Positions 6,347-46,270 of a stretch of DNA of 64,000 nucleotides are shown here, piece after piece. Numbering within the stretch: position 1 is the first letter of the stretch; every line of letters starts with the position of its first letter. The position numbers and the translations under genes were made by a program. Below the pieces are notes generated by a model. The model was given only the letters and a program-made list of their open reading frames with translations. It searched no databases and was not told the origin of the DNA. Location: assembly GCA_947623865.1 (NCBI GenBank), contig CANQIC010000002.1:21041-85040 (forward strand). Reading direction: 5' to 3'. Source of the DNA: an uncultured Clostridia bacterium (GTDB lineage Bacteria; Bacillota; Clostridia; TANB77; CAG-508).

Positions 6347-6385
6347 TAGAAACAATACTTTTGTAAATTATAGACGAATAAAAAA

Positions 6386-6430: not shown

Positions 6431-6464
6431 TTTTTATGACAATTATTGCAGATAAAAAAGTAAT

Positions 6465-24298: not shown

Positions 24299-24301
24299 CA
24301 A

Positions 24302-26276: not shown

Positions 26277-27278
26277 ATGGAAAAAGCAAATAAGGTAATG
26301 ATTATTGATGATGAACAAACTTTTATTGTGCCATTACAAATTGGATTAAAAAGAATGGAAATAGAGGTTGTTTCATTTACAGATCCAGAAGAAGCAATAG
26401 AATATTTAAAAAATAACAAAGTAAATGTTCTATTAACAGATTATCACATGGAACCTAATATTAATGGAGATGAAGTTATTCATAGAATAAGAGAATTTAA
26501 TAAAGATATCATAATATATCTCCAAACAGGATATGCTGAAAAGTTACCTGCAGAAGAGATGCTTGAAAAATATGATATTCAAGGATATATAGACAAAGGA
26601 GAAGGTCAAGAAAAGAATCTTAGATTAATTAAGTCTGCATTAAAGCATGCACAAACTTTAGAATTAGTGAAACAACAAGAAAAGAAATTAGATGCTCAAG
26701 AATATAGAAATCAGTTTTTAGGTAAATTCCTAAATATGCTTATGGGAGAAATAGGAGAAAAAAGTTTTGCAATGGCAGGAAATTTAATGTCTTTAAAGGA
26801 ATTAGAAGAAGAAATTTCTCCGAATGTAAGAGAAATATATAATAAAAATGTAAATAATATAAAAACATCAATTGAAAAATTAAATCAATTAATAAAATCG
26901 TTAGAGTTAGAAAAAGAAAACATAACCATATCTGAATTAAGAGATACTCTAATTAGTTTATTTGAGGTTACTTTTACAATAAAAGATATAAAATTAAATT
27001 TTAGAAATAATACTGATAATGATTATTTAATAATTCCATCTGATTCAAAAGTATTGGTATATATATTAGTAGATATAATAGAGTATTTAATAAAAAAACA
27101 AGAAAAGCAAATTGATATATTTTGTGAAAAAGAAGATAATAGCATAGTAATAAAGGTATGCAATGAAATTGAAAACGATGAATTATTTAATAAAATTGAG
27201 AAGTTAGCTATGTTTGATGAAGATATAGAAATTAAAAATAAATATAATCAAATTAAAGTAATTAGTAAATGCATATAA
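26277..27278 (+). CDS. response regulator with atypical C-terminal domain
   Basis: receiver domain (IIDDE...LLTDYHM...K); 200-aa C-terminal domain with no obvious DNA-binding HTH. Confidence 0.65.
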   Translation: MEKANKVMIIDDEQTFIVPLQIGLKRMEIEVVSFTDPEEAIEYLKNNKVNVLLTDYHMEPNINGDEVIHRIREFNKDIIIYLQTGYAEKLPAEEMLEKYDIQGYIDKGEGQEKNLRLIKSALKHAQTLELVKQQEKKLDAQEYRNQFLGKFLNMLMGEIGEKSFAMAGNLMSLKELEEEISPNVREIYNKNVNNIKTSIEKLNQLIKSLELEKENITISELRDTLISLFEVTFTIKDIKLNFRNNTDNDYLIIPSDSKVLVYILVDIIEYLIKKQEKQIDIFCEKEDNSIVIKVCNEIENDELFNKIEKLAMFDEDIEIKNKYNQIKVISKCI

Positions 27279-27508
27279 TAATTACGAACATCAAAAAATT
27301 AGGAATGATAAAAACCTGCTTACAGATTTATATACAAAACAGATAAAGAAAAATCAATTTAATAAAGATATTTAAAATTCAAGGAGTAAATCTTTGAATT
27401 TTATTTTTCTCAACTTTAATATATTTTAAATATAGAATAAATATTATTTATGATATATTGAATCATTAAAATATTAAAAAATAATATACATTGTATAGAG
27501 GTGATTAG

Positions 27509-27647
27509 TTTGGAATCTAATATTGAAGAACTTTATACAAAAGATGGCAAAGAATTATTTGAATTAATTCAAGAATGGATAAATGAAAATAATTCTTTTT
27601 TATATTATAAAAGTAGAGAGAAAGATGTAAAATATCGTTGTAGATAA
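27509..27647 (+). CDS. small ORF (46 aa) upstream of recombinase 1
   Basis: TTG start behind GAGGTGA Shine-Dalgarno; the same arrangement recurs before recombinases 2 and 3. Confidence 0.25.
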
Positions 27648-27682
27648 GTAGTTATTTATATAACTTGAGATAGGAGGTAAGA

Positions 27683-29281
27683 ATGTATGCGTTATATAAT
27701 AACTATTTCAATGTATTAGATGATATAGCATGGAAAGTAGCAATATATGTAAGATTGTCAAGAGAGGATGAAAAAGATGATAACTATAAAGGACAATCAG
27801 AAAGTATTGAAAACCAAATAAATTATTTAAAAACTATTGTAAAAGAAAAAAAGTGGGTTTTAGTAGATATATATAGAGATGATGGTTATACTGGAACAAA
27901 TTTTGATAGACCAGATTTTCAAAGAATGATTCAAGATATAGAACTTGGAAAAATAAATTTAGTTATAACTAAAGATTTATCAAGACTTGGAAGAGATTAT
28001 ATAGAAACAGGTAGATATGTAGAAAAATACTTTCCATCAAAAAATGTACGATACATTGCAGTCAATGATTACATTGATACATTTGATAAGAGAAATTCTA
28101 ATAATGATATAACACCTTTCAAATCAGTTATTAATGATATGTATGCAAAAGATATATCCAACAAAGTAAGAAGTGCTATTCTTACAAAAGCAACAGAGGG
28201 AGAATGTATAAAAGCATTCTTGCCTTATGGATATAAAAAGGATATATATGACAAGAACAATATATTAATAGATGAAAATGTTGCTGATAATGTAGTTTTG
28301 ATTTTTAACTTATATAAAAACGGAAAAAGTAAAACTCAAATTGCTAATCACTTGAATGAATTAGGAATAAAAACACCTCTGAAATACAAACATGAAACTA
28401 CAAATTACTTTAATCCTAATGAAACTTATACGTATAAATGGAATAGTACAATTATAAATAAAATATTGAGAGATAGAATATATGTAGGAGATTTGGTACA
28501 GTTAAAATATACAAAAATAAATTATAAGATTAAAAAAATGATTAAAGTACCAAAAGAACAACATGTTATAATATTAAATCACCATCCAGCAATTATAGAA
28601 AGAAATGTTTTTGAAACAGTACAAGAAATGTTAGACAGAAAAACAAATGAATGGAATTATTCAGGAAGAAAAAGACATTTATTATCAGGATTAGTCTTTT
28701 GTCAATGTGGAAGTAGAATCACTTATAATAAAAATCATGGCAAATATTTTAGATGTATATGTTCTAGTTATAAAAAGTATGGAAATCAGTTTTGTTCTAG
28801 TGTACATTTAAGAGAAGATGAATTAATAAGATTAGTAACAAATTCCTTAAAAGAAAATATATCTAAATATCTAAATATGGATAGTTTATCATATCAAAAT
28901 CAAAATATAGATAATGAATTAAAAAAAAATATATTAAACTTAAATAAAAAGAAAGAAGAATTAAATAAAATAATTAGTAATTTATATGAGGATAGACTAT
29001 CTGGGGTAATATCTCAAGACACTTTTACAGATTTAATAAAGAATTATGAAACTCAAAAAAAAGAATATGATAAAAAAATACAATTATTTCAAAGTGAAGA
29101 AAATAAAGCATTTTTACAGGATAATATAAATAATGAATTATTAAAAGAAACTATGAAAGAACTATTAACTTTTAATGATATAAATGAAGAAAATAGAAGT
29201 ATTGTGTTTAAATTAATAGATAAAATTATTATATACGATAGAGATATAAGTATAAAATATAAATTTAATATACCAGAATAA
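27683..29281 (+). CDS. large serine recombinase (SpoIVCA/CisA-like)
   Basis: N-terminal resolvase domain VAIYVRLSRED...; recombinase domain and Cys-rich zinc-ribbon; coiled-coil C-terminus. Confidence 0.85.
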   Translation: MYALYNNYFNVLDDIAWKVAIYVRLSREDEKDDNYKGQSESIENQINYLKTIVKEKKWVLVDIYRDDGYTGTNFDRPDFQRMIQDIELGKINLVITKDLSRLGRDYIETGRYVEKYFPSKNVRYIAVNDYIDTFDKRNSNNDITPFKSVINDMYAKDISNKVRSAILTKATEGECIKAFLPYGYKKDIYDKNNILIDENVADNVVLIFNLYKNGKSKTQIANHLNELGIKTPLKYKHETTNYFNPNETYTYKWNSTIINKILRDRIYVGDLVQLKYTKINYKIKKMIKVPKEQHVIILNHHPAIIERNVFETVQEMLDRKTNEWNYSGRKRHLLSGLVFCQCGSRITYNKNHGKYFRCICSSYKKYGNQFCSSVHLREDELIRLVTNSLKENISKYLNMDSLSYQNQNIDNELKKNILNLNKKKEELNKIISNLYEDRLSGVISQDTFTDLIKNYETQKKEYDKKIQLFQSEENKAFLQDNINNELLKETMKELLTFNDINEENRSIVFKLIDKIIIYDRDISIKYKFNIPE

Positions 29282-29349
29282 AGTATAAAAATGAGTTATA
29301 ATTCTTCCAAAATGAACGGTGGATGGCCATGGGAAAGGGGGAATTATTA

Positions 29350-29539
29350 ATGTGGACCTATAATAAGGTATTAGAATATCCAATAAATATAAAATGTCCA
29401 AATCCAAGACTTGCAAAATTTATAATATCACAATATGGTGGACCTGATGGAGAACTTGCAGCATCACTTAGATATCTATCGCAAAGATTTGGAATGCCAG
29501 ATCAAAAAGCAAAAGCTATATTAAATGATATAGGAACAG
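29350..29539 (+). CDS. cotJC: CotJC-like manganese catalase, segment 1 of 3
   Basis: MWTYNKVLEYPINIKCPNPRLAKFIISQYGGPDGELAASLRYLSQRF...DIGTE matches the Mn-catalase/CotJC N-terminus, then diverges into element sequence. Confidence 0.8.
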
Positions 29540-29922
29540 AAGATTATGTTCCAAAAAGGTTATCAATTAATTATAATTAAAGAGATATAAGTATTTTTTA
29601 ACTTAACTATATAATCTTATATCTCTTTATATTTAATTATTTTCATGAATTTTCTTTAAATAAAAACTTATTAATATATTTTTTTATATAAAAAAGTACT
29701 CCACCTCATATTTGACTCTTTCGACAATCCGTTTTAAGGCATTTTTATTATTTTATAGTATAATTTTATATCTTTGCGAATTAAAATGGATTAGAAACAA
29801 TCATCGCAAAGATTCAAATATCTATTAACGTTTTTGAATTTTTGTGTTAGAATGTAATGGTAATAAAAAAAATGGGAAAAATCCCATTTCTTTATATGAT
29901 TTTTTAATATCTTGTATTATAT

Positions 29923-31041
29923 TTACATTTTATCCATATACTCATCTACAATTTTTTTAGCTGTCTCCAAACTTAATCCCGCTTCATCTCTAACAGCTTT
30001 TATTATAGCTATTTTGTCATATCCATATAGTTGTATTTTATCCTCTATATTATACATATCATTATTTTCAATTTCTATATGTTCTTTACCATTTTCTAAA
30101 TCATCTTCATTATTTATAGTGTTTTGACTCTCCAATATTTTCTTTTTGCTTATTTCAAATTCTTCTTGTGTTATTGCTCCACTATCTTTTAATTTTGATA
30201 ATCTTTCTAATTGCTCAATAAAATCGCCATTATTTTGTACCATTTTTTTTACTCCTTCATTATTATTATCATTTATTATTGACATTACTGTTGCATACAC
30301 ATTATTAGCAAAATTCATTGCTCGTTTATATTCAATACTATCTTTTTTCGTTTCATTTTTTATTAATTTAATAGTGTATAATGATTTTGAAATGTCATTT
30401 GTTATAATTCTTAATTGTAAACTATTAGTTATATTCTGACTTTTTCTTGTATTCGCTCCAACTATTGCTCCAACTCCTCCTGCTAATGCTCCACCAACAA
30501 TAGCTCTGCCAACTCCACCTTTCATTATAGTATTGTTATCTTCTAATATTTCACAATCTATAATATCTGTAAATTTTAAAATATTTACTTTATTAGTAGG
30601 ATACATATCACAAATTGCAATTCTTTTATTTTGCATATCTATTCTAAACTGTTTTTTAGATTCAATTAAGCTAACTGCAATATTTTTAGATGTCTCGAAA
30701 TTTTTATCTTTTAATAATTTATCTATTTCGTTTATATTATTTTCCGTTTTTTCATTTTCTGTTCCTAATGACATAAAAAACATTACGAAAAGTGCTATTA
30801 CAATTACTGCTATACGAACTACCGCAAAAGGTTTTCCTAAAACTATATTCATAATCATAATGCATATTATTACAATACAAATTATTGTTATTACAGGATT
30901 GTAATTATTTTTTGCAATATTTGACTTGTTTTTTAATCGTTCTACTGTTTCAAACTCATTTATTTGATAATTACAATGAGGACAATTCTTTGCCTTATCA
31001 GAAACATCTCCATTGCATTTAGGACATTTAATAATTGCCAT
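29923..31041 (-). CDS. zinc-ribbon / TM / SHOCT / L7-L12-C-like domain protein
   Basis: KCPKCNGDV...CPHCNY ribbon; one TM; LERLSKLKDSGAITQEEFEISKK (SHOCT-like); C-terminal IKAVRDEAGLSLETAKKIVDE (ribosomal L7/L12 CTD-like). Confidence 0.5.
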   Translation of the reverse strand: MAIIKCPKCNGDVSDKAKNCPHCNYQINEFETVERLKNKSNIAKNNYNPVITIICIVIICIMIMNIVLGKPFAVVRIAVIVIALFVMFFMSLGTENEKTENNINEIDKLLKDKNFETSKNIAVSLIESKKQFRIDMQNKRIAICDMYPTNKVNILKFTDIIDCEILEDNNTIMKGGVGRAIVGGALAGGVGAIVGANTRKSQNITNSLQLRIITNDISKSLYTIKLIKNETKKDSIEYKRAMNFANNVYATVMSIINDNNNEGVKKMVQNNGDFIEQLERLSKLKDSGAITQEEFEISKKKILESQNTINNEDDLENGKEHIEIENNDMYNIEDKIQLYGYDKIAIIKAVRDEAGLSLETAKKIVDEYMDKM

Positions 31042-31057
31042 TTTAAAACCTCCAATT

Positions 31058-31369
31058 TTATTTTCTCACATTATTTTCTATATTTTGTAATTTTTGTATA
31101 ACTTCTGCTATTGCTAATAGCAATAAGGCTACTAATTCAAACATACAGTACACTAAAATTCCAACAAGTACACAGCCTAAATTTTCAATAAATTGAAATG
31201 TTAATAAAGCACATATTATTGCAATAATAATTCCAAAAATAGTAACACTTTTACTCCATTGTTTTAGATTAATTGCAATTGGATTTGAATAAAGTGCCTC
31301 TCCACAATGAGGGCATACACTAGCTTTATTTGATATTTCTTTGCCACAATTACTACATTTAATTATCAT
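31058..31369 (-). CDS. zinc-ribbon membrane protein
   Basis: KCSNCGKEI...CPHCGE followed by 2 TM. Confidence 0.45.
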   Translation of the reverse strand: MIIKCSNCGKEISNKASVCPHCGEALYSNPIAINLKQWSKSVTIFGIIIAIICALLTFQFIENLGCVLVGILVYCMFELVALLLLAIAEVIQKLQNIENNVRK

Positions 31370-31378
31370 ATAAACCTC

Positions 31379-31814
31379 CTAAGAAAAATGTATTATAATT
31401 GCAAATATTAATGGAAATAAATGAAACATAATAAGTAATATTGTAGATATCATTATAACTATTTTACCTATCTTTTTATTTCCCTTTTTTAGCAAAATAC
31501 CTATCCAAATTCCTATCACACAAAAAGGAGCTGTCCAAAATCTAAATCTATTTAGGAAATATGCTATTGTTCCTGTGTTTTGTGCTCCATACATTTCAAT
31601 ATATCTTTGTAGTTCCTCATTCTGCACCCCCATAATTAAAGAAGGAGCTGAATTTAAAAAAACTAAAACAGACAATATAGCTCCAAATATATAGAATTTA
31701 GAATTTTTATATCCAACAATATTTATTTTAAAATTTTTGTATCCGACAATGAGGACATACACTCAAGTTGCTATCATATTGTTTTTTACATTCTTTACAA
31801 ATAATTTGTTCCAT
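31379..31814 (-). CDS. zinc-ribbon membrane protein; frame broken by extra C (plus-strand ccg 31743-31745)
   Basis: MEQIICKECKKQYDSNLSVCPHC then, after skipping C of CGG, GYKNFKINIVGYKN... joins the listed 127-aa ORF; paralog of the two upstream genes. Confidence 0.45.
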
Positions 31815-31828
31815 TTTTTCCACCATTC

Positions 31829-32098
31829 TCATTTATTTTTTATATCTTGCAATAACTGTATGATTTCTCCTAAAGCATAAGTAAAAATTCCTGAAACTAT
31901 ACTTAAAATAATAATTAAAATAGCATAGTCGACTTTATCTATCAAATAAAATCCATACATACTAAAAATTATTGTAAAAATAACAGCTAAAACTTTTATT
32001 AACATTGCAACAGTATTATTTTTAGCATTTGAATTATTATTTTTCTTATAGTTATTATTTGTTATACCAATTGCATTTAAAACATTTTTATCTTGCAT
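31829..32098 (-). CDS. small membrane protein
   Basis: 89 aa, 2 TM. Confidence 0.3.
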   Translation of the reverse strand: MQDKNVLNAIGITNNNYKKNNNSNAKNNTVAMLIKVLAVIFTIIFSMYGFYLIDKVDYAILIIILSIVSGIFTYALGEIIQLLQDIKNK

Positions 32099-32632
32099 TT
32101 ATTTTTCCTCCTTCAAGAGAATATAATAGTTGAAAAAGTACGGTGTAATTAATAGGTATGAAAAATATTGTATGTAAAGGTAATTTATTTCTCCAGCTGT
32201 ATTATGCTGATTAATTTGGATTATATTAAAACTAATGTAAATTAATATAGCTAATAAAAATATTATATTATTAATAAAAGTATTTTTCTTAAATAAAATA
32301 TTAATAAAATAAAGAGAGATTAAGAAAAAACATATAAAGCCAATAAAATTTTTTGCCGTTAATAATAATAAATCCCATATTATTAAACTAATGAATAATA
32401 TCATATTAGTTACGGTTAAATTTCCCTTATTAAAGAAAATTCTTATCGAAATTAGTATAAAATATATTATCATTCCTATTTTTAATATATTATCAATTAC
32501 AAACGTGCTTATTATAATTTCTTCAAACTCACTATTATACATGTAATATCCATAAAACATTAATACTACACCTATAATTCCTAACAAAACTGTAATTTTA
32601 GGATTAAGCAAAGTTTCTTTTATTTTTTCCAT
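32099..32632 (-). CDS. polytopic membrane protein
   Basis: 177 aa, 5-6 TM. Confidence 0.35.
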   Translation of the reverse strand: MEKIKETLLNPKITVLLGIIGVVLMFYGYYMYNSEFEEIIISTFVIDNILKIGMIIYFILISIRIFFNKGNLTVTNMILFISLIIWDLLLLTAKNFIGFICFFLISLYFINILFKKNTFINNIIFLLAILIYISFNIIQINQHNTAGEINYLYIQYFSYLLITPYFFNYYILLKEEK

Positions 32633-32665
32633 TTCATCACCACCTTTTACTTTAATAATCCGCTT

Positions 32666-32920
32666 CTAACCAGTATTTTTATTGCTTGAACAATTATAAT
32701 TACTACACCATTTACAATAAGTGTCATAAAAATAATAATATGTATTTTTACAGTTTTTCTCTGTTGCTCCGTCAATATTATTTATTTCTATTTGAATATA
32801 TTGTTTGGCTTCGTATAAAAAGTTATTTTCTAATAAATTTCGTATATTTTTTAGTATTTCCAACAGTTTTAATTCTTCCATTATTTTTTCCTTTTTCGAT
32901 ATTTTTCTACATTTTATCAT
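32666..32920 (-). CDS. hypothetical protein
   Basis: 84 aa ORF with Cys-rich tail. Confidence 0.3.
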   Translation of the reverse strand: MIKCRKISKKEKIMEELKLLEILKNIRNLLENNFLYEAKQYIQIEINNIDGATEKNCKNTYYYFYDTYCKWCSNYNCSSNKNTG

Positions 32921-33000
32921 TCTTTGTTGGCACGTGCAAGTGCTACTTTTATAAGTGTCAGTATTATAAAATCCTTTTAGTAAGGGAAAGAAGGTATTTT

Positions 33001-33216
33001 ATGATAATTTTAAATGTAGAAAAAATATTAAAAGAGCAAGGTAAATCGAAAGAATGGTTATGCAATGAAATGGATATATCTCACTATAATCTTAATAAGG
33101 CAATAAAAGGTAATGCAAAATCCATATCATACAAATACCTACAGTCTTTTTGCAAAGCTCTAAACTGCTCTTTTAATGAATTGATGACTATTGTTGAAGA
33201 TGAAAAGGAAACCTAA
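33001..33216 (+). CDS. XRE-family helix-turn-helix transcriptional regulator
   Basis: 71 aa; LKEQGKSKEWLCNEMDISHYNLNKAIKG HTH. Confidence 0.6.
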   Translation: MIILNVEKILKEQGKSKEWLCNEMDISHYNLNKAIKGNAKSISYKYLQSFCKALNCSFNELMTIVEDEKET

Positions 33217-33240
33217 TTACTAAATATTTTTTTTAATTTT

Positions 33241-33462
33241 TTATCTATCTTCTTGTTCATTTTTATTGTTTTGCTTCCGATTTTCCCCATATTTTTTTAT
33301 ACATTTGTTTTGTGAATTTATCATTTTATTTATTTTAGGACTTGTAGCAAGTTCTAAATTTTTTTGATAAATATCTAATGTTTTTATTCCCGCTTCTTTT
33401 CCGTTCTTTAAAGATTTTTTTATATCCTCAAGTATTGAAATTGCAACTTCTTTTTCTACCAT
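33241..33462 (-). CDS. hypothetical protein
   Basis: 73 aa; contains an in-frame CGG near the C-terminus, so the true end is ambiguous. Confidence 0.3.
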   Translation of the reverse strand: MVEKEVAISILEDIKKSLKNGKEAGIKTLDIYQKNLELATSPKINKMINSQNKCIKKYGENRKQNNKNEQEDR

Positions 33463-33604
33463 CTTAAACCTCGTTTTCGCTTATATTATAGCAAAAATGA
33501 AAATATTTCAATAGTTTTGGTTTATTTTATGATTTATTTATTAAACTATACATATTTTAAATCAATTTATAAAATACTAATAAATGTAAAAAATGGTTTA
33601 AAAG

Positions 33605-33805
33605 GTGGTGGAAATAATGGCTTTTAAAATTCCAAGAGGCATTAATAAAGTTCCATTTTCTATTAGAGTTGATGAGAATGATTTTGAAATCATAGATAAA
33701 TTATCAAAGAAAAATAAAAAATCATATAATTATATTGTTAATTGCATGATAAAGTATGCTATAGAAAACATGGATATGAAAGATATAAAAAACATAGAAA
33801 TATGA
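33605..33805 (+). CDS. small ribbon-helix-helix-like regulator
   Basis: 66 aa; KVPFSIRVDENDFEIIDKL pattern. Confidence 0.35.
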   Translation: MVEIMAFKIPRGINKVPFSIRVDENDFEIIDKLSKKNKKSYNYIVNCMIKYAIENMDMKDIKNIEI

Positions 33806-33924
33806 TTTTGAATAGCTGACAAAACTAGCCTCTTACTCATATTAAACAAAAAATCTATTTAAACACTTAAAGTAGGACGGGCTATAAAAAAGGACTAGCT
33901 TTAAAACTAGCCCATTTTTTATTT

Positions 33925-34180
33925 TTAAAAATCTAAAATGATTTTTTGATTATCAATTATAAAGGTTAATGTATTAATTTCAATATCTGTCACATAGTCT
34001 AAACTTAATATAAATTCTTCATTTTTTGTGTCAGTTATAATTAAACTATGATTACTTATTAAAATCTTCGCATTATGTATTGCAAAATTTGTTATTATAG
34101 CTCCGTTTCATTATCACAGTAACATCTTTATCTAAAAAATTATTAAATAGTTTTTCTTCTAACATTTCTAAATCTTTCAT
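33925..34180 (-). CDS. hypothetical protein (about 84 aa); frame broken by extra C (plus ccg 34103-34105)
   Basis: MKDLEMLEEKLFNNFLDKDVTVIMK then, skipping C of CGG, GAIITNFAIHNAKILISNHSLIITDTKNEEF... Confidence 0.35.
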
Positions 34181-34195
34181 ACTTTTATTTCTCCT

Positions 34196-34758
34196 TTAAA
34201 TTTCAAAATCATTATAAGCCTCGTCAATCTCGTCTTGTTCTATTCCAATATAGCGAAGTGTTATTGAAGGGCTAGAATGGTTAAATAATTTCTGTAACAT
34301 TGCAATATCTTTTGATTTCTTATAAAAGTGATAACCGAAATGTTTTTCTTAATGTATGTGTTCCAATTTCTTCTAATCCCATCTTTGAAGCTACTTCATT
34401 TAATAGTCTATACGCTTGTATACGTGTAATAGGATTATTTATTCCTTTTCTGCTAGTAAATAAATAATCTGTCATTTTCATATTTTTTGTATATTCTAAT
34501 AGCTCTCTTGATACTGTATCATTTATTCTAAATCTTTTTTCTTTATTTGTTTTTTGTTCTTTTATGCAAATATGAGATTTTATACTTCTATCTTCGTTTA
34601 AGACATCTAAAGCTTTTAATTTTATTATATCTGATATGCGAAGTCCTGTATTTATACCTACTATAAATAATAAGTAATCTCTTGTTCCGCTTCTTTCTTA
34701 ATTCAACTTTCATTTCATTTATTTTATTTTTATCTCTTATAGGCTGTACGATTTTCAT
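34196..34758 (-). CDS. small tyrosine recombinase (phage-integrase family, about 186 aa); two extra-C frame breaks
   Basis: Minus-strand translation gives ...GINTGLRISDIIKLK...GTHTLRKTFGYHFYKK...LGH (R..H-x-x-R..Y catalytic residues) once the C's at plus ccg 34687-34689 and 34334-34336 are skipped. Confidence 0.6.
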
Positions 34759-35095
34759 TTTAAAATACCTCCTTATTTTCTATTTTTGTTACATTAAAAG
34801 TAACACTATAATTCAATATGATACATTCAAATTGTTTTATTTGAGAAAAAGTTACTAAAAAGTCTTATTTTTCAATACATCTTGCTTTTTTATTGAATGT
34901 AACAAAATAAGTATTGTGTTACATTCACTCATTATGAAAATATTTTTTTGCATAAAAAATACTTTTCAATGATATTTCTAAATAATTATTGAAAAGTAAA
35001 GCAAATTCATCTATAATAAAAATAGAATGACTTTTCAATAAGTTATTCGGTTTGTGATATAGTGTGCGACGCCAATCAAAGCACTATATCACTTT

Positions 35096-35305
35096 TTATT
35101 TTTCTTGTTTAGTTATAGTTATTTTTCCTTTTTGATATTTTACATTCAATTCGTCATCTTTATTAAATCCTGTTGTTTCAATTCCAGATTTTTTTAATGA
35201 TATTCTATAACCTTTTACAAATGCTGTATTATCCTTTCTATATTCTTTAATTTCTTGTAATCTAGCCATCTTCACTCCTTTCTTAACTTCATCCATATTA
35301 TACAA
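35096..35305 (-). CDS. small AbrB/MazE-like DNA-binding protein
   Basis: 69 aa; swapped-hairpin-like pattern; tentative. Confidence 0.3.
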   Translation of the reverse strand: MYNMDEVKKGVKMARLQEIKEYRKDNTAFVKGYRISLKKSGIETTGFNKDDELNVKYQKGKITITKQEK

Positions 35306-35446
35306 CGTGTGCTACGTTGTGTCAACATTTTATTTGTTTTCTTTTTTCTGAAGCATAAATATATTGAAATAGCTACTTTTTATACATTATGATATTATAA
35401 AAATTTCCTCGAATTCTTATACCAAATTAACTATATCTTTTATATA

Positions 35447-36259
35447 CTATTTATTTTTCATTCTACTTTTTTGTTTTCTTAACTTATCTTTCTCTTGTTC
35501 GGAATGTCTACAACAAAATTTTCTCTTTCCATTAAATGTAGCAAATTGTTCATGACATATTGAACAGACTTTTATCTTTACATTTCTTGCGTCACAGTCC
35601 ATTAATCCCTCTTCCGATAAAAACAAGAAATTAAATTGTAAAAAAGCTATATCAATTAGTTTATGACAATAATATATAAATTCATATTTATCGTTCTTCT
35701 CATTATAATTAAAAGTCAAAGTTACAGAATTCAAGTCATAATCCCAAACTTCTAATGGCACTATATTTCTTTTTATTTCTTGAATTGTCCTATATTTAGT
35801 ACCTAATACCTCGTTCGCTCCTTCAATATCTTCTTCATCTCCTGATATTAAAATCCATGCTCTAAATCTACAATACATACTATATGCTATAAAAGAAAAA
35901 TCATATATTTCAAGTCTATCTGTTTTCCCATTAGGCATACCATATTTTTTACATAATTGCATAATTTTATCACTTAATCTAATTGCTTCCTCATCTGTCC
36001 TTTTAAACATAGGATTATGTTTATTATCTCTACTAAAATTTTTATAAATATATTCTCCTATATGTAATATATCATACAAAACTGATATATCATTGCTTTC
36101 ATAATGCTTACTATTCTTGTTAAAGTTTATTCCCTGTATATAATAAGTTTTTTCTCCATTTGAAGCGCCTATTTTTCTTTCATAATTTTCAAATTGTATT
36201 GTTTCAGTTCCAATTATTTTAGGCATACTTATTTGCTTTGGTTCAAAGTCTAAAATCAT
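35447..36259 (-). CDS. hypothetical protein with C-terminal zinc finger
   Basis: 270 aa; CSICHEQF...CCRH cluster. Confidence 0.35.
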   Translation of the reverse strand: MILDFEPKQISMPKIIGTETIQFENYERKIGASNGEKTYYIQGINFNKNSKHYESNDISVLYDILHIGEYIYKNFSRDNKHNPMFKRTDEEAIRLSDKIMQLCKKYGMPNGKTDRLEIYDFSFIAYSMYCRFRAWILISGDEEDIEGANEVLGTKYRTIQEIKRNIVPLEVWDYDLNSVTLTFNYNEKNDKYEFIYYCHKLIDIAFLQFNFLFLSEEGLMDCDARNVKIKVCSICHEQFATFNGKRKFCCRHSEQEKDKLRKQKSRMKNK

Positions 36260-36553
36260 ATTTATTTCATCTCCTATTTAAAAGTCACAATAAATGTCAC
36301 ATTCACATTTAAAAAAAAATTTTAATGTCACGTTTATTTTATATTTTTTTATTTAGCAAAGCTATAAGATAAGTTCATAAAAAGAAACTAGTTTCCCTTG
36401 TTTTCTACTATTTTAGCATAATCTCAAAACATTTAAAAGTAGAAATTGAACATTGAAAATTAAATATTTTTTGATTAGATAAACTTTTTTAGTGCGTTGC
36501 ACACATACCTATCAAATGGCTTAAATAAAAAAATTTTTAAGGAGGTATAAATT

Positions 36554-37591
36554 ATGGTAGATACAATAACTGTACAGTTTAATTTTAACTATGATGTCAA
36601 CCAAATTGTACAATCAAAAATTAAAGAAGGAATAATTCCTATTAAAAAAAAGCCATATATAAATGGCAAAAGTGTTTTCGGTATTTATGTTGGAAGCAGT
36701 AGAATTTTTCCTAGTATTTATTACAATGCTAGATTTGGCTACGTTCTTATTACAATTAATACTAGGCTTCTTTTAGGACATGAACCAACTCCAAGTAATA
36801 TTACTTATATTGAAAAAGAGGTAATAGCTTTTTTTGAAAAGACCTTCGATATTTCTATGAATTACATTGATGCTCTTACTCTTAATAGAATAGATTACAA
36901 AGTAGATTTTAAAAGCAAATTTGGAGTAGAATCACAAATTTTTTACGAATTAAGAGATATTTTATCAGATACTTTAAATGGAATTGAAAAAAATATAGAA
37001 AAAAATAGCGTAAGCTATTGCCCAAAGAAAGGTTATATTGAATTGATTTCATATAACAAAGAAAATGAACTATATGAAAAAATGAAACATAAAAAAAATG
37101 ATGAAATATTCGCTAATAATGAAAGTATGAAAAATTACCTAGGAGTAATTAGAACGGAAGTACGAGTGAAAAATAAAAAATTAAATTATACAAAAAAATC
37201 ATTAGGTTTAGCAAAAGAGCTTCAAAATTATCTTGACGATTATATTGCTAACTATTTTTTTGAAAGCTATGCCCAAAAAATTTGGTATAAAGAGCCATTC
37301 TACAGAATTGATATTGCAATGAAAAAAATAAATATGGCAGAAAACATAAAACCTATGATGAAAGAAAAACTTAAAAATTTAATCTTTATGATACACAATA
37401 CTGGTATTACTAACACTAAAAAATTTTACAATAAAAAATATACCAGTTCAACATTTATCAGTCATATAAAAAAAATCAGAGATTTAGGTATAAACCCTCT
37501 AACTTTTAGTAAAAAATATGACGTTGAACAAATTGAAAATTTTGCTGTGTATAAATCAAATATTGTTAATGATTTACATACAATTAATTAA
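36554..37591 (+). CDS. hypothetical protein, possibly replication/initiator-like
   Basis: 345 aa, no recognisable motif; sits beside the recombinase module of the element. Confidence 0.3.
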   Translation: MVDTITVQFNFNYDVNQIVQSKIKEGIIPIKKKPYINGKSVFGIYVGSSRIFPSIYYNARFGYVLITINTRLLLGHEPTPSNITYIEKEVIAFFEKTFDISMNYIDALTLNRIDYKVDFKSKFGVESQIFYELRDILSDTLNGIEKNIEKNSVSYCPKKGYIELISYNKENELYEKMKHKKNDEIFANNESMKNYLGVIRTEVRVKNKKLNYTKKSLGLAKELQNYLDDYIANYFFESYAQKIWYKEPFYRIDIAMKKINMAENIKPMMKEKLKNLIFMIHNTGITNTKKFYNKKYTSSTFISHIKKIRDLGINPLTFSKKYDVEQIENFAVYKSNIVNDLHTIN

Positions 37592-37604
37592 AGAGGTGTA
37601 TCTT

Positions 37605-37745
37605 ATGGAAGTTAAGGAAATTTGCATTGATAATACAACGATAAAGTTTTTTGATAATTGTATTTTAGAATCAATGAAAGAAGCTAATTTAAGTAGTTTT
37701 GAAACTATCTTATTAGATTCTATAAAAAAAATAGAGAAATTGTAA
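37605..37745 (+). CDS. small ORF (46 aa) upstream of recombinase 2
   Basis: AAGAGGTG Shine-Dalgarno then ATG; same arrangement as at 27509 and 42292. Confidence 0.3.
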   Translation: MEVKEICIDNTTIKFFDNCILESMKEANLSSFETILLDSIKKIEKL

Positions 37746-37782
37746 TTTTCTTCAAAAGCATATATAATAGCACATAGTCAAA

Positions 37783-39372
37783 ATGAAAATTATGAGGAAA
37801 GGAGGAAATTTGGAAAGTGACGAATACGCTATATATTTAAGAAAGTCAAGAGAAGATAGAGATTTGGAAAAATATTGTGTCGGTGAAACACTTGCAAGGC
37901 ATGAAAAAACATTATTAAATCTGGCTCAAAACATGCATCTGCATATTGGAAAAATTTATCGTGAAGTTGTAAGTGGAGAAACAATTTCCGAACGAGAAGA
38001 AATGAAAAAGCTATTAAAAGACGTTGAAGAATGTAAGTGGTCTGGTGTTCTTGTTATGGAAGTTGAAAGATTAGCTCGTGGAGATCCATCCGACCAAGGA
38101 ATTGTTGCAACGGCTTTTAAGTCTTCCTCTACCAAAATAATTACTCCAAATAGAATATATGACCCTAATAATGAGTTCGATGAAGAATTTTTTGAATTTG
38201 GTTTATTTATGGCTAGACGAGAATATAAAACAATAAATAGAAGACTTCAACGAGGCAGAACAACCTCAATAAATGAAGGAAAATATGTAGGAAGTATTCC
38301 CCCATTTGGCTATGAGCGAAAAAAAATAGATAATGCAAAAGGTTATACATTAGTACCTAATGAAAAAGAAGCAAAAATCGTAAAAAAAATATTTGAATTA
38401 TACTCTTATGAAGATGTTTCATTAAACAGCGTTGCTAATAAAATGAACGAATTGGGATTAAAACCTATGAAGGCAGATAGTTGGTCTATCTCCTCTATTA
38501 AAGATATTTTAAATAATCCTGTTTATATCGGTAAAATAAGATGGAATTCAAGAAAACAAGTAATAAAATCAAAGAATGGTCAGAGAATTATTACAAGACC
38601 CAGAAACAATGACGTTACTATTATAGATGGTTTGCATGAACCTATTATAGATGAAAATCTTTGGAACATTGTAAAAAATAAGAGGAATTGTAATACTCCT
38701 CCTGTGCAACATAATAATGTTGTACAAAATCCACTTATGGGAATTGTCTTTTGTGAAAAATGTGGTAAACCAATGCAACGAAGGCCATATAATTTAAAAG
38801 GAAAACCAGCTACCTTAATGTGTAGTAATCCAAAGTGTGATAATATTAGCTCTAAGTTACATATTGTTGAAGAAAAGATTTTAGAAGCAATCGAAATATG
38901 GTTAAAAAACTATACTATAGATTATTCAAAGTTGAATAACAAAAAAAGAACAAAAACGTTTGATGAACTACAAGAATTAAAAGAATTAGAAAATAAATTA
39001 AAAAAAGAAAAAGAAAAATTAAATAAAGTTTATGAGTTATTAGAAGATGGTATTTATACAAAAGAAGATTTTTCTGAACGTTCAAAAACATTAAAAAATA
39101 GTATTACATTAATTGAAGCAGATATAAAAAAAGCTAAGGATAATGTAAACAAAATGAAAGAAATCGAAAAAAGAAAGGATATAATAATTCCTAAATTTAA
39201 AAATGTAATTGAAGTATATGATAAATTAGAAACAAGTGAGGAAAAGAATACTTTGTTAAAAAGCATTCTAGAAAAGGTTACATATTTAAAAACCGAAAAA
39301 GCTATAAAAAAGAATTCTGACCCTACAAAGTTTACTATTTGCATATATCCTAAAATTGCAAAAATTAATTAA
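37783..39372 (+). CDS. large serine recombinase (SpoIVCA-like)
   Basis: YAIYLRKSREDRD catalytic-serine region; recombinase and zinc-ribbon domains (CEKCGKPM...CSNPKCDN); coiled-coil; ends 60 bp before the right junction. Confidence 0.85.
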   Translation: MKIMRKGGNLESDEYAIYLRKSREDRDLEKYCVGETLARHEKTLLNLAQNMHLHIGKIYREVVSGETISEREEMKKLLKDVEECKWSGVLVMEVERLARGDPSDQGIVATAFKSSSTKIITPNRIYDPNNEFDEEFFEFGLFMARREYKTINRRLQRGRTTSINEGKYVGSIPPFGYERKKIDNAKGYTLVPNEKEAKIVKKIFELYSYEDVSLNSVANKMNELGLKPMKADSWSISSIKDILNNPVYIGKIRWNSRKQVIKSKNGQRIITRPRNNDVTIIDGLHEPIIDENLWNIVKNKRNCNTPPVQHNNVVQNPLMGIVFCEKCGKPMQRRPYNLKGKPATLMCSNPKCDNISSKLHIVEEKILEAIEIWLKNYTIDYSKLNNKKRTKTFDELQELKELENKLKKEKEKLNKVYELLEDGIYTKEDFSERSKTLKNSITLIEADIKKAKDNVNKMKEIEKRKDIIIPKFKNVIEVYDKLETSEEKNTLLKSILEKVTYLKTEKAIKKNSDPTKFTICIYPKIAKIN

Positions 39373-39434
39373 AGTAATATCAATAGTTGGAATTATAATT
39401 TTTATTTTGACTATTGATAACTTTAATGGAACAG

Positions 39435-39651
39435 TCGAACTTGCTCACTTAGAAATGGTTGGAACAATAGTTCACCAATTAACAGATGGAGTAGATGCTC
39501 AAGAATTAGAAAAGGCAGGATTAGGAGCATATTATACAGATCATGGTGTAGGAGTATATCCTCAAGCAGCAGCAGGATGGCCATGGAATGCAGCAACTAT
39601 AGCTGTAAAAGGTGATCCAATTGCAGATTTACAAGAAGACTTAGCTGCAGA
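39435..39651 (+). CDS. cotJC: CotJC-like manganese catalase, segment 2 of 3
   Basis: ELAHLEMVGTIVHQLTDGVDAQELEKAGLGAYYTDHG...AAGWPWNAATIAVKGDPIADLQEDLAA is the Mn-catalase central region; it diverges after cttagctgcaga at 39640-39651. Confidence 0.8.
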
Positions 39652-39847
39652 CACTGCACTCTTGAAAGCACAACATCAATAAAATGCAGTAAAATGAACC
39701 AATATTAAATAATTGCACTTACAATTTTGTAAGTGTTTTTTTGTTGGAAATCAAAATTGTTTAATTTTATTAGTATGTAACAATAGAATGTAAAATTAGT
39801 ATTTCGTGTACTAACTACTTACATTCTTTTTTATATCAAAGGGAGAT

Positions 39848-40111
39848 ATGATTATGGATAATCTTACAGTTGAAAGACTTACCCATTTCCCCAAGAATGA
39901 AAAACTATATCATAAAAGGAAAGGCATTAAAGTACCACCAAAAGAAAAGATGAAATATAAAGAATGCCCAGAATATGAATCAACAGAGCATACAAGAATA
40001 TCAAGTAAAACATATATGATAAAGAATTTGCAAAGTGATAAAATTGTAAATACCATATCAACAGACATTTATAAAAAGACTATATCAAAAAATCAAGACC
40101 AGGATTTATAA
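39848..40111 (+). CDS. hypothetical protein
   Basis: 87 aa ORF with RBS AAGGGAGA. Confidence 0.3.
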   Translation: MIMDNLTVERLTHFPKNEKLYHKRKGIKVPPKEKMKYKECPEYESTEHTRISSKTYMIKNLQSDKIVNTISTDIYKKTISKNQDQDL

Positions 40112-40698
40112 CACAACCTACCACACCAACAGTAGAAACATCAACTACAAAGAAATCAAGAATTATAGAAATAATAGAAAAACAAAAACAACCAAGTGAA
40201 ACAGTGTTTTGGGAATTCTTTTAAATACAATTAAAATATTAATAGATAACTATAATAAAAGGGGTGTTATTAGACCAAATTAGCTTGAACTTACAAATAG
40301 AAATATAAAAAGGGGATATTAAATTAAAGAGTTAGAATTCTTGGAACTATAAGAGATAGATTTAGAAGAAATTATTTCATATTTAAAATTAAATAATAGC
40401 CCAACAATTACAATACTTGATGACCTTAACTATGATTTGTTTAATCAACTTGTTGCGTATGCAGAAACATTAAAGTTGATATTCTTTATAGTAAAAGGAA
40501 CATATAAGATAGCCGTAATTTGTAATAGATAAATTGCATTAAAGATAGCCCAAATATTCAAGATAAAAGCACAGATTATGTTTTATAGTAATCTAAAACC
40601 TAGAAAGTTATATTGATACAAATATTAAAAAAGTATATACTTGAAAAATAGACTTTAAAAGCAATTCCAGTTGCAACCCCAGTTGCACAAGCAAAAAT

Positions 40699-40727
40699 TT
40701 GCATTTTACGTGAATCTGTGTTATAAT
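40699..40727 (+). promoter_or_regulatory. sigma-A-type promoter
   Basis: TTGCAT, 17-bp spacer, TATAAT upstream of 40795. Confidence 0.5.
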
Positions 40728-40794
40728 ATATATAATATTCGTGGGTACAGCGAACTATAACAAATGTACCATCTTGTAAGAAACTTTCAAGATT

Positions 40795-41181
40795 TTGGAG
40801 GTCAAAATGAGAACACGGAAATTTTCCAGAATTGCAGTCGTAATAATTATGGTTGTTGTGGTGGTGGCTCTCGCTATAATAGCCAGCGTATTCACTTCAT
40901 TTAACGACCATACCTATACGGCGACCGTTACAGACAAAGAGCGGATTGTTAAAAATGACGATGGAGATGTTGATTCCTACTACTTGATTTTTTGCAAAGA
41001 TGATGGGGGAAATTACTATGAATTTAAGAACGAGGATAATTTACTCCGTTTAAAATTTAACTCATCTTCTGTCTATAATCAGATTGAAGTAGGAGAAACA
41101 TACCAATTTACCGTTGTTGGTTTCCGCATCGGACTGTTCTCATGGTATGAAAATATCATTAAATTTGAAAAGATTAATTGA
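40795..41181 (+). CDS. membrane-anchored DUF1093/YxeA-like protein, foreign composition
   Basis: 128 aa; N-terminal TM. GC is locally much higher than the surroundings and there are two in-frame CGG Arg codons that are not frame breaks. Terminator follows at about 41205-41240. Confidence 0.45.
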   Translation: MEVKMRTRKFSRIAVVIIMVVVVVALAIIASVFTSFNDHTYTATVTDKERIVKNDDGDVDSYYLIFCKDDGGNYYEFKNEDNLLRLKFNSSSVYNQIEVGETYQFTVVGFRIGLFSWYENIIKFEKIN

Positions 41182-41371
41182 ATGTTTTCTACCAACCAAA
41201 AAGAATGTATTTTCTTTTCCCCTTATGGGGTTTCTTTTTTTGACCTTTGAATGTAATACAATATACATTTTAAAAATTGATTAAGTATACTTGTATCAAT
41301 GCCTTCACAAAATAGCACTTATTCCCCTATCAAGAAAATATAATATACTGTATTAACATATAACATTTAAT

Positions 41372-41656
41372 ATGGAACAAGAACAATATTTATTTCCAAG
41401 ACAAAAGCGTACAAATAGACCTATAACAACAGTACAAGCATATCGAATATTAAATAAAGCCGGAGCAAATATAGGACTTGCAGAAATTGCTACACATACA
41501 ATGCGAAAAACTTTTGGTTACCACCACTACCAACAGAATAAAGATGTAGCCATTTTACAAGAAATATTTAATCATTCAGCCCCAAGCATAACTTTAAAAT
41601 ATATAGGAATAAACCAAGATAACATAGACCAAGCATATAAAAATTTTAGACTATAA
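41372..41656 (+). pseudogene. truncated tyrosine recombinase (C-terminal catalytic fragment)
   Basis: ...ATHTMRKTFGYHHYQQ...LKYIGI... is homologous to the C-terminal half of the 34196-34758 integrase; the N-terminal domain is missing. Confidence 0.55.
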
Positions 41657-42291
41657 ATCAAAAGAGTACTAGATAGAATACATCTAGTACTTTTACTTTT
41701 TAAGCAATACCCAAAACGACCATTTTTGGTACTATTTTCTATTCATATAAGCATTTACAGATTTCTTAAATAAGTAGTAAATTTCCCTTTGAACAGAGCA
41801 ACTACATTCAAAAATAATATTGTCTTTTGTTTTTTTATCTGTTACATCTTTAAGTTGAGCAATAGCATTTTCAATTTGTATAGCAAATACATCTAACAGA
41901 TTAGATTTAGAAATAATATTATTTAATACATCATTTTTATGTTATTATCAATTTCACTTAGTATTTGTCTTGAATTAGAATCTAAATGAAATTTGTTAAA
42001 GTTAGGGTCATCAGTTGGTTCAGTAAAAAGGCATCCCAGAAAATTTTATAAAAATCATTAAATACAGAATAATGATACTTTTACCCAGCCACAGACATCG
42101 CAATGGGGGGTAATCTTGTAAAAGAGCAAGAAGATGGAATTCCTATGTACTGTAGAAGCAGTAGTTTAATGATTAGTTACACCTAGAGAATACAACGTGG
42201 CATTCATTAGATATAACACAATATTACTAGAATATGAGTGCATAAGTGTTTTATTTCGTGAATAGATTTAATTAAGAGAGGTGTATTAAAT

Positions 42292-42402
42292 ATGGACTCA
42301 ATAGTATGTGAGAATGTATTTGTTTCAGCAAATGAAACAGAAAAAAGCCAAGCATTCAATGAAGTTTGGCAAATGGTAGTAAATATGATAATAAATAAAT
42401 AA
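42292..42402 (+). CDS. small ORF (36 aa) upstream of recombinase 3
   Basis: AAGAGAGGTG Shine-Dalgarno then ATG. Confidence 0.25.
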   Translation: MDSIVCENVFVSANETEKSQAFNEVWQMVVNMIINK

Positions 42403-42475
42403 ATTTAGTGAAACCAGTTTACAAGAGCCAAGATTATGTGTTATAAAATGTAGCAGATAATATTGGTTCTTTTTA

Positions 42476-44068: not shown

Positions 44069-44091
44069 TAGTTGTACTATCAGAGGTATAA

Positions 44092-44322
44092 CAGAGCAAA
44101 AGGCTAGGGCAACTTATGAAAAATTAATAGATTTATGCAAGGATGACCAAGATGTTATTGACCCACTTCGTTTCTTAAGAGAAAGAGAAGTAGTTCACTT
44201 CCAAAGATTTGGAGAAGCATTACGTGGAGTACAAGATAAACTTGCAGAGAAGAAATTTTATATGAATAATAACAATGATATGAAATGTAGATAAAGAAAA
44301 AGTCCCATAGGGACTTTTTCTT
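44092..44322 (+). repeat. direct repeat copy 1: cotJC 3' end (last 66 codons) plus terminator
   Basis: 231 bp, one mismatch to 46040-46270; encodes EQKARATYEKLIDLCKDDQDVIDPLRFLREREVVHFQRFGEAL... Confidence 0.85.
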
Positions 44323-45326: not shown

Positions 45327-45435
45327 TAAAAATGTGAGTCGCAACCCTATTTGCGTCGAATAAATGGATAGGTGAAAAAATGTGAACCGCAACCCTGCTT
45401 GCGAGATATAAATGCGCAGGTGAAAAAATGTTAAT
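45327..45435 (+). ncRNA. ToxI-like antitoxin RNA: two 48-nt tandem repeats plus a partial third
   Basis: aaaaatgtgaGTcgcaaccctATttgcgTCGaAtaaatgGATaggtg then aaaaaatgtgaACcgcaaccctGCttgcgAGAtataaatgCGCaggtg. Each has an internal cgcaa/ttgcg hairpin; period is 48. Confidence 0.5.
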
Positions 45436-46039: not shown

Positions 46040-46270
46040 CAGAGCAAAAGGCTAGGGCAACTTATGAAAAATTAATAGATTTATGTAAGGATGACCAAGA
46101 TGTTATTGACCCACTTCGTTTCTTAAGAGAAAGAGAAGTAGTTCACTTCCAAAGATTTGGAGAAGCATTACGTGGAGTACAAGATAAACTTGCAGAGAAG
46201 AAATTTTATATGAATAATAACAATGATATGAAATGTAGATAAAGAAAAAGTCCCATAGGGACTTTTTCTA
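46040..46270 (+). repeat. direct repeat copy 2 (retains the full cttagctgcaga core, so it is the likely genuine cotJC 3' end)
   Basis: identical to 44092-44322 except C/T at one position. Confidence 0.85.
46042..46242 (+). CDS. cotJC: CotJC-like manganese catalase, segment 3 of 3
   Basis: With segment 2 it reads ...DLQEDLAAEQKARATYEKLIDL..., the conserved Mn-catalase C-terminus; a bidirectional terminator aaaaagtcccatagggacttttt follows. Confidence 0.75.
   Translation, partial: EQKARATYEKLIDLCKDDQDVIDPLRFLREREVVHFQRFGEALRGVQDKLAEKKFYMNNNNDMKCR

Follow-up and report, generated by a model that had tools for sequence, protein, structure and literature searches.

The question raised by this locus is where, to the base, a mobile element recombined into a spore-coat gene, and whether the gene could be made whole again. 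The locus lies in a 64,000-nucleotide stretch of DNA from an uncultured Clostridia bacterium (GenBank assembly GCA_947623865.1, contig CANQIC010000002.1, positions 21,041 to 85,040), called the window here; its G+C content is about 25%. The interrupted gene is cotJC, a spore-coat gene of the Mn-catalase family located 3' of cotJA and cotJB. The insertion studied, element 2, is one of three unrelated large serine recombinase (LSR) elements in this operon. Its body occupies 29544..39436, and the distance from crossover to crossover is 9,895 bp. We conclude, with a probability of roughly 0.75 for the statement taken whole, that element 2 was put into cotJC at a GA dinucleotide by its own LSR, and that it would excise in the mother cell, restoring the gene. 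Two parts of this statement can be graded separately. The anatomy of the attachment (att) sites and the GA crossover, as read from the sequence, are very probably correct, and mother-cell-specific excision, argued by analogy, could equally well hold or fail.

In the window cotJC is present as three pieces, all on the plus strand. Piece 1 (29350..29543) holds codons 1-64 plus the GA of codon Glu65. By blastn it matched positions 5001-5194 of L001, a locus with an intact cotJA-cotJB-cotJC operon and the same upstream and downstream synteny as the window, with 98% identity. Piece 2 (39437..39651) runs from codon 65 to the first 2 bases of codon Glu136, where it ends at the attL of element 3, and matched L001 positions 5184-5407 with 93.8% identity; translation was used along with blastn for both pieces. 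Piece 3 (44094..44295), directly after element 3, runs from codon 136 to the stop and completes a 201-aa protein. When joined, the three pieces contain no stop or indel, and the resulting protein is a match to Pfam Mn_catalase (8.9e-52). Its closest relatives, among thousands of homologues, are uninterrupted proteins of 200-208 aa with 97% identity. The EELAH motif (Glu65, His68) aligns with the same motif of the solved Mn catalase KatB (4r42/6j42), and the Lactobacillus plantarum enzyme (1jku) was also matched; we take Glu65 and His68 to be metal ligands.

To map the crossover, attL, attR and the intact cotJC of L001 were aligned. The attL sequence is that of intact cotJC up to ...GGAACAGAAGA (29543), and attR is that of intact cotJC from GAACTTGCT (39437) on. 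The sole stretch where both hybrid sites still match attB is GA, 2 bp to the right of the heptamer GGAACAG that the two junctions share. Because the identities of attL and attR to attB overlap only there, exchange is confined to GA, found at 29542..29543 in attL and at 39437..39438 in attR (plus strand). A 2-bp overlap is what the LSR mechanism predicts. By the alignment to attB and a half-site table, attL (29518..29567, plus strand) consists of the host B arm, GA and the element's P' arm (ttaTGTTCCaaaaagGTTATCAAT). By the same alignment, attR (39413..39462, plus strand) consists of the element's P arm (ATTGATAACtttaatGGAACAgtc), GA and the host B' arm. The sites are about 50 bp long, with GA as the first 2 bases of codon Glu65 in EELAH. 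Joining the element arms gives an attP of tATTGATAACtttaatGGAACAgtc-GA-ttaTGTTCCaaaaagGTTATCAATt, or in longer form aatttttattttgactATTGATAACtttaatGGAACAgtc-GA-ttaTGTTCCaaaaagGTTATCAATtaatta. Joining the host arms gives an attB of ...aatgatataGGAACAgaa-GA-acttgctcacttagaaatgg..., which is translated gat ata gga aca gaa GAa ctt = DIGTEEL. The attP arms about GA match at 15 of 21 and 18 of 25 positions, and symmetry is low at every other center. As judged computationally, these are att sites of the LSR type, about 40-50 bp long with a nonpalindromic 2-bp crossover at the dyad center of attP.

The earlier note on this DNA had read the junctions as attL and attR of an LSR-bearing element, and this reading was borne out by the Pfam Resolvase, Recombinase and Zn_ribbon_recom domains of the recombinase encoded next to attR. 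The junction strings it quoted, gatataGGAACAGaagattatgttcc on the left (29527-29552) and aactttaatGGAACAGtcgaacttgct on the right (39419-39445), are present in the window. So is the inverted repeat in the former, GGAACA (29533-38) and TGTTCC (29547-52) around an 8-bp spacer. Its description of the rebuilt attP as an imperfect palindrome with a gataac...gttatc dyad also held. GATAAC (39416-21) and GTTATC (29559-64) lie on the element side of the junctions and extend to ATTGATAAC and GTTATCAAT. Two further proposals stood in part. GGAACAG is indeed shared by both junctions, but it is not the crossover core, since exchange is confined to GA and the dyad axis lies on GA. Likewise the host flanks do join in frame, but the product is DIGTEELAH, as in uninterrupted homologues, rather than the DIGTVELAH that had been proposed; the GA join retains Glu64, a residue that is Glu in 13/13 intact homologues aligned. 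The note's own data point to the same base pairs. The dyad axis of its 44-bp attP falls on GA at positions 22-23, and the 8-bp spacer of its attL palindrome, GAAG-ATTA, is centered on the same GA. The attP sequence itself required one correction: TC, not AA, stands just left of GA.

Exchange within GGAACAG deserves consideration as an alternative, given that the heptamer is the longest uninterrupted identity between attL and attR and that a join within it is in frame. Such an exchange would produce a circle carrying ...aatggaacagAAgattatgttcc... and a restored gene encoding DIGTVELAH; it predicts attB as GGAACAGTCGAACTT / GGAACAGAAGAACTT and attP as GGAACAGAAGATTATG / GGAACAGTCGATTATG. We consider it very improbable. 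After GGAACAG, attL and the intact gene have AA, and attR has TC. Because this TC is element DNA, differing from the intact gene, the exchange must lie to its right. The two sites read GGAACAG-AA-GA and GGAACAG-TC-GA, so the shared identity is not contiguous with the exchange point. The attP dyad axis lies on GA, 3 bp to the right of the heptamer, and symmetry collapses at all other centers. In three relatives (L013, L015 and L027) the GGWACA blocks of attL and attR differ, and GA(A) is still shared. Finally, a join inside GGAACAG gives GTVEL, in which Val64 would displace the Glu found in all 13 intact homologues, beside EELAH. The heptamer is instead a predicted inner recombinase-binding motif. 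It is seen at both junctions because the motif recurs, with one copy in the host B arm (29533..29539, plus strand; codons Gly62-Thr63 plus a G) and the other in the element P arm (39428..39434, plus strand), which is element rather than host DNA and is followed by TC where attB has AA. GGAACAG is weak evidence by itself: the 64-kb window holds 15 copies, and 2.8 would be expected from shuffled sequence. Of the 63,956 window positions, 17 had a dyad of at least 15/21, and so did 34 of 200,000 random chimeras (about 1.7e-4). What goes beyond chance is the agreement, to the base, between the joined flanks and the intact homologue, together with the attP dyad symmetry, not GGAACAG alone. With the crossover at GA, the predicted excision product keeps Glu64 and the predicted circle carries TC-GA, which fixes the primers, k-mers and substrates to be used. 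The k-mers for a GA crossover are GATATAGGAACAGAAGAACTTGCTCAC (attB) and TTTAATGGAACAGTCGATTATGTTCC (attP), and those for a crossover in GGAACAG are GATATAGGAACAGTCGAACTTGCT and TTTAATGGAACAGAAGATTATGTTCC.

Relatives of element 2 were sought in a scan of one genome per species, with identity to the LSR of element 2 (LSR2) as the criterion. Seventeen loci had an LSR 44-70% identical to LSR2, all in metagenome-assembled genomes (MAGs) of gut Clostridia or Lachnospiraceae. A cotJC piece broken at residues 62-67 was present in 15 of the 17, and the relative with 44% identity had no cotJC piece; above roughly 56% LSR identity, relatives share the cotJC target. Interruption of cotJC is thus common in uncultured gut Clostridia. 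Both junctions could be read for nine of the scanned loci and for L027 (79% LSR identity), giving ten relatives and, with the window, eleven elements. The LSRs of these ten are 59-79% identical to LSR2, and the sequences come from gut Clostridia MAGs and metagenome contigs of unrelated studies. The overlap of attL and attR identity differs in length between elements (GA in the window, GAa in L015 and L027, GAat in L013, aaGAa in L010), and what the eleven elements have in common is GA. The best dyad center had an offset of 0 in 10/10 elements scored (the window element and nine relatives), and the arms of L027 align in the same register. GTEELAH was recovered in every rebuilt attB region of the eleven. 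In the main subfamily the attP arms are near-perfect, ATTGACAACATCATGGTACAgaa-GA-atgTGTACCATGATGTTGTCAAT.

The half-sites of the family could be aligned on this center. GGWAC stands at -9 to -5 in the B, P and P' arms, with TGAGC in B', and GGWACA (-9 to -4) holds the same P-arm position in all eleven elements. The attP arms also carry ATTGAYAAC as an outer motif, and a similar AATGATAT lies in the B arm 5-6 bp nearer the center; this inward shift of the attB outer motif is like the shift published for LSR sites. Half-site alignment has been validated experimentally as a predictor of LSR crossover points (PMC12286644), and the same procedure gave a unique center for elements 1 and 3. The orientation of the element varies. 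The LSR gene runs against cotJC and adjoins attL in most relatives; it runs with cotJC and adjoins attR in the window, L015, L019 and L027. Read in the orientation of the LSR gene, the central dinucleotide is TC in most relatives (L005-L014, L017) and GA in the subfamily of the window, L015, L019 and L027. The same GA is used in both orientations, and the elements range from about 3.3 to 11 kb. Both orientations are consistent with this anatomy because, with a near-palindromic attP, only the central dinucleotide sets the orientation. For further use, the family offers sets of LSR, attP, attB and candidate directionality factor with a 2-bp GA core, in natural variants of 59-79% LSR identity acting on the same attB. 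Such sets could serve as recombinase tools and for studying how LSRs read half-sites.

The source is apparently a metagenome-derived genome, and the possibility was considered that the junctions are chimeric joins of unrelated contigs, in particular as attL was not recovered in an independent assembly. This we regard as extremely improbable. The attR of element 2 and the attL and attR of element 3 lie inside three independent assemblies from other samples, two of them 100% and one (L025) 99.6% identical to the window. The attR junction of element 2 is identical in L024 and L026 and is also contained within L025. ENA samples assembled as ERZ27249363, ERZ27249370 and ERZ27249377 contain this strain. 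Moreover, cotJC is split at the identical base in ten relatives that come from unrelated studies, and the junction symmetry is that expected of recombinase sites.

The gene content of element 2 was annotated from the open reading frame (ORF) list with Pfam, PHROGs and NCBIfam. The LSR2 gene (37810..39372, plus strand) has a TTG start in a frame open from 37783 and encodes 520 aa; a 100%-identical 520-aa protein, P0121, is in the database. The protein has an N-terminal resolvase catalytic domain (PF00239, 3.3e-13), a C-terminal recombinase domain (PF07508, 1.4e-23) and a zinc-ribbon domain (PF13408, 7e-8). Tyr9, Arg11 and Ser13 (YxRxS), the conserved arginines, and Cys315, Cys318 and Cys338 in the zinc-ribbon region are invariant with 12 relatives. 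The stop codon is 65 bp from the attR crossover, which places the element's own recombinase near one end. LSR2 is 24-25% identical to the other two LSRs of the window. In the phage and plasmid records searched, its best matches were to a human faecal phage (49%) and to plasmid-borne SprA (about 30%). LSR relatives on viral contigs were tried as an attP check and set aside, being only 46% identical and below the level of about 56% at which the target is shared. Directly upstream of LSR2 is a 46-aa acidic ORF (37605..37745, plus strand; isoelectric point 4.65). A homologous ORF of 46-49 aa lies 13-128 nt upstream of the LSR in 16/16 related genome loci with sequence there, L027 has a 49-aa ORF in the same slot, and the ORF was called as a gene in the independent assemblies L024-L026. 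Searches of Pfam, PHROGs and NCBIfam gave no family match to it. The analogy with SprB, GirX and CD1234 makes its product a likely candidate for the recombination directionality factor.

Upstream of the small ORF is a gene for a 345-aa protein (36554..37591, plus strand) with no Pfam or other sequence-family hit. Its AlphaFold2 model (pLDDT 88) suggests a Rep_trans-like fold, such as that of a rolling-circle initiator or relaxase. The top Foldseek matches were RepD, RepDE and RepSTK1 (4cwc, 4cwe, 4cij), with E values of 2e-7 to 3e-6 and TM scores of only 0.33-0.49. Homologues lie beside the LSR in L015 and L027. The modeled fold suggests that the excised circle might replicate by rolling circle or be mobilized; no origin of transfer (oriT) or double-strand origin (dso) was identified for element 2. 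At 36270-36340, in the intergenic region that separates the Rep-like gene from a divergent gene of 270 aa, the motif ATGTCAC occurs three times (aaATGTCACattcac..., taATGTCACgtt); the repeat may serve as an operator or an origin. The remaining cargo comprises zinc-ribbon/SHOCT membrane proteins, helix-turn-helix and ribbon-helix-helix regulators and a tyrosine-integrase remnant. The last of these, at 34320-34758 on the minus strand, consists of two short ORFs that are tyrosine-recombinase fragments (Phage_integrase, 4.9e-5), a decayed second integrase. No capsid, portal, terminase, tail or lysin families were found among the ORFs scanned, and a prophage reading of element 2 was rejected. A defense-system reading of the cargo was likewise dropped after a PADLOC scan without hits. 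On its gene content, element 2 is a small non-phage integrative element, closest in kind to gin.

The excision model proposed for element 2 follows the mechanism of the LSR family. LSR dimers on attL and attR would synapse, cut at GA with 2-nt overhangs, rotate 180 degrees and religate, releasing an attP-bearing circle and restoring cotJC. The attL x attR direction would need a directionality factor, and the candidate is the product of the 46-aa ORF. Excision would occur in the terminally differentiated mother cell and the germ line would keep the element, by analogy with skin, SPbeta/spsM, gin and yin. Expression of cotJ in Bacillus subtilis takes place in the mother cell. In Clostridioides difficile, cotJ-type operons are sigma-K mother-cell genes (PMC3789822).

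The trigger for such an excision was sought in the DNA upstream of the recombinase. Read-through from the cotJ promoter cannot serve as the trigger throughout the family, since insertions in both orientations are found. A CATAnnnT box is located 8-12 nt upstream of the ribosome-binding site of the small ORF in 13/16 loci, with the sequence CATACAAT in the window (about 37578-37585) and CATAAATT in most relatives, where its distance from the small ORF is about 20-35 nt. A terminator hairpin (CAAGACAnnnTGTCTTGGG plus a T-run) stands ahead of it in the main subfamily. The box may be a mother-cell-type -10 element, for which no -35 was assigned. A conserved sequence upstream of the small ORF, GGTATTTTTTT, was tried as the -35 box and rejected, as it is partly the T-tract of the terminator hairpin in many relatives.

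Several observations weigh against developmentally timed excision. Restoring the whole operon needs three separate excisions, and under the model cotJB and cotJC would be whole only if elements 1 and 3 excised as well. The junction of the excised circle, AATGGAACAGNNGATTATGTTCC, was absent from viral and JGI metagenome contigs, and no 100%-identical intact cotJC of the same strain was found among the homologues. No convincing -35/-10 pair was found upstream of the LSR or in the intergenic region 36260-36553, nor was a convincing sigma-E or sigma-K promoter. CotJC is dispensable for sporulation in model species, so that simple inactivation could be tolerated. The split gene itself gives mixed signs. 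When rejoined it differs from an intact homologue by 20 synonymous and 6 nonsynonymous changes, and the dN/dS of 0.07 speaks for selection after insertion, but weakly, as the divergence could largely predate the insertion. In its favor, rejoined cotJC is full-length in 6/9 relatives rebuilt; in the other three (L013, L017 and L027) a 1-nt indel frameshifts the 5' piece, through errors in the MAGs or because the split gene is really decaying. The attP of the relatives, CATGGNACNGAAGAATNNGNNCCNTGATG, was absent from viral contigs, and its three JGI matches were dismissed as chance, being one coding sequence (MELKNMFLDGE...) without the outer arms and not attP.

These points leave room for a reading in which the att anatomy is the same and there is no developmental role: element 2 would be an ordinary mobilizable or replicative element sitting in a dispensable coat gene, excising sporadically for transfer or no longer at all. 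A Rep_trans-like gene suits a transfer or replication lifestyle, the cargo is partly decayed, as the tyrosine-integrase remnant attests, and three or four insertions are stacked in one operon. The frameshifted 5' pieces, the sporulation promoter search without a demonstrated promoter, and the use of both orientations, which removes cotJ read-through as a general trigger, fit as well. Such a reading is possible, though we think it unlikely, given that the three cotJC pieces are free of stops and indels with a dN/dS of 0.07, and that six of the nine rebuilt relatives are full-length. Further, the pair of LSR and small ORF is intact and conserved across 17 related loci, and the targets fall strictly within a mother-cell gene, which is characteristic of the cases established by experiment (skin, SPbeta, gin and yin).

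Comparison with known sporulation-gene elements places element 2 in a well-established class. It lies inside the cotJC coding sequence, carries its own recombinase, and when rejoined in silico leaves the frame intact. The gin element in gerE of Bacillus cereus ATCC10987, with the GirC recombinase and the GirX directionality factor (PMC5595907), is likewise not a prophage and sits in a short mother-cell sporulation gene. It too has a serine recombinase, a short overlap in an imperfect inverted repeat and a precise in-frame junction. It differs in having 28.6 kb, three serine recombinases and a 9-bp overlap, and its sporulation-specific excision has been seen by PCR and Southern blot; element 2 has 9.9 kb, one LSR, a 2-bp overlap, a Rep_trans-like gene and cotJC as target, and is known from sequence alone. 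The skin elements in sigK, with SpoIVCA/Skr in B. subtilis and CD1231/CD1234 in C. difficile (PMC5025042, bioRxiv 10.1101/2022.02.25.481979), resemble element 2 in being found in either orientation to the host gene, in having cargo that differs from one element to the next, and in their small directionality factor, for which element 2 has a candidate. They differ in target: sigK encodes a regulator, and its excision gates the whole late program, whereas cotJC is a structural or enzymatic coat gene.

SPbeta, at 134 kb, is an active phage, unlike element 2 with its lack of phage structural genes among the ORFs scanned. It has an LSR with a small directionality-factor gene (SprA/SprB; PMC4191935, PMC5499854), as is proposed for element 2, and its excision from spsM rebuilds a spore-envelope gene in the mother cell. 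The phage LSRs A118/LI, Bxb1 and phiC31 have the 2-bp center, inner motif of four half-sites and outer motif in the attP arms that are predicted for element 2, following the Van Duyne and Rutherford model of LSR att architecture as used in PMC12286644; element 2 differs in not being phage-borne. The cotJC target was already known. It is named as an insertion target by Abe et al. 2013 (cited in bioRxiv 10.1101/2021.11.22.469490), and a skin-like element lies in cotJC of Laceyella sacchari (bioRxiv 10.1101/2022.02.25.481979). These interruptions were also recognized in silico; their hosts are Bacilli, and they are likened to element 2 by target gene only. In the literature compared, no att sites, crossover point, gut-Clostridia family or operon stacking are described for cotJC interruptions. 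Element 2 is then a further example of its class, and what is added here is a predicted base-level att map, a family-wide attP/attB consensus and a candidate directionality factor.

Element 2 does not stand alone in the operon, since the 1.3-kb cotJ operon carries one insertion in cotJB and two in cotJC. Element 1 (19807-29325; 9,517 bp) splits cotJB, with a predicted center of TG at 19807-8 and 29324-5 and an identity overlap of ATGG; its attL reads ...GAGCCATGG followed by gctacg, and its attR ...ggtggATGGCCATGGG. The LSR of element 1 (LSR1; 27683-29281) is 25-31% identical to the other two LSRs. The cargo, all codirectional with cotJ, includes a histidine kinase, a response regulator and a single-module nonribosomal peptide synthetase that ends in a reductase (C-A-T-R, 1437 aa, 19985-24298). 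Element 3 (39650-44095; 4,444 bp) splits cotJC again. CAGA is shared by its junctions, and the best dyad center is GA at 39650-1 and 44094-5, the first 2 bases of codon Glu136 in LAAEQKAR. It carries its own LSR (LSR3; 42476-44068) and part of a tyrosine-integrase gene (41372-41656). For element 3 as for element 2, the crossover lies in a Glu codon of a conserved catalase motif, and these codons presumably encode metal ligands.

Stacking is not confined to the window. LSR1 relatives (58-71% identical) adjoin cotJ in L015 (3553-5136), L014 (12355-13524) and L005, and L005 has in addition (4314-7004) a third LSR, 38% identical to LSR3, with a cotJC piece ending at residue 104. Multiple occupancy recurs, because LSR1 relatives and a further LSR adjoin cotJ in other MAGs. 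We offer as a speculation, and one more doubtful than not, that the cotJ operon of a group of gut Clostridia is a site where independent recombinase elements stack, that three timed mother-cell excisions make up a multi-lock rearrangement, and that the 46-aa protein founds a new family of directionality factors. If this were true, the coat catalase would be made only after three separate, correctly timed mother-cell excisions; such a multi-lock rearrangement has not been reported for spore formers in the literature compared here. Were excision confirmed, a small operon with three stacked LSR elements would offer an unusual setting in which to test how developmental DNA rearrangements are coordinated. 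In practice, split cotJC or cotJB fragments in gut Clostridia genomes should be checked for such elements before they are called pseudogenes.

Downstream of element 3, two copies of the cotJC 3' end with its terminator (44092-44322 and 46040-46270, 1 mismatch) flank a 1.7-kb islet. The second copy begins at a point 12 bp to the left of the element 3 crossover, and beyond this copy the host synteny is restored. The arrangement looks like either a Campbell-type single-crossover insertion or an element with a replacement 3' end. On its minus strand the islet encodes an alpha/beta hydrolase (44350-45159), and the gene at 45505-45990 specifies a type III toxin of the CptIN family, which scored 157 bits in NCBIfam, where the cutoff is 90. 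In L015, a 176-aa ORF (9557-10087) between the LSR and attR resembles the islet toxin, by eye only. In the window, the toxin gene has a tandem repeat ahead of it (45328-45431; unit of 48 nt, 2.2 copies), and this repeat is probably the antitoxin RNA.

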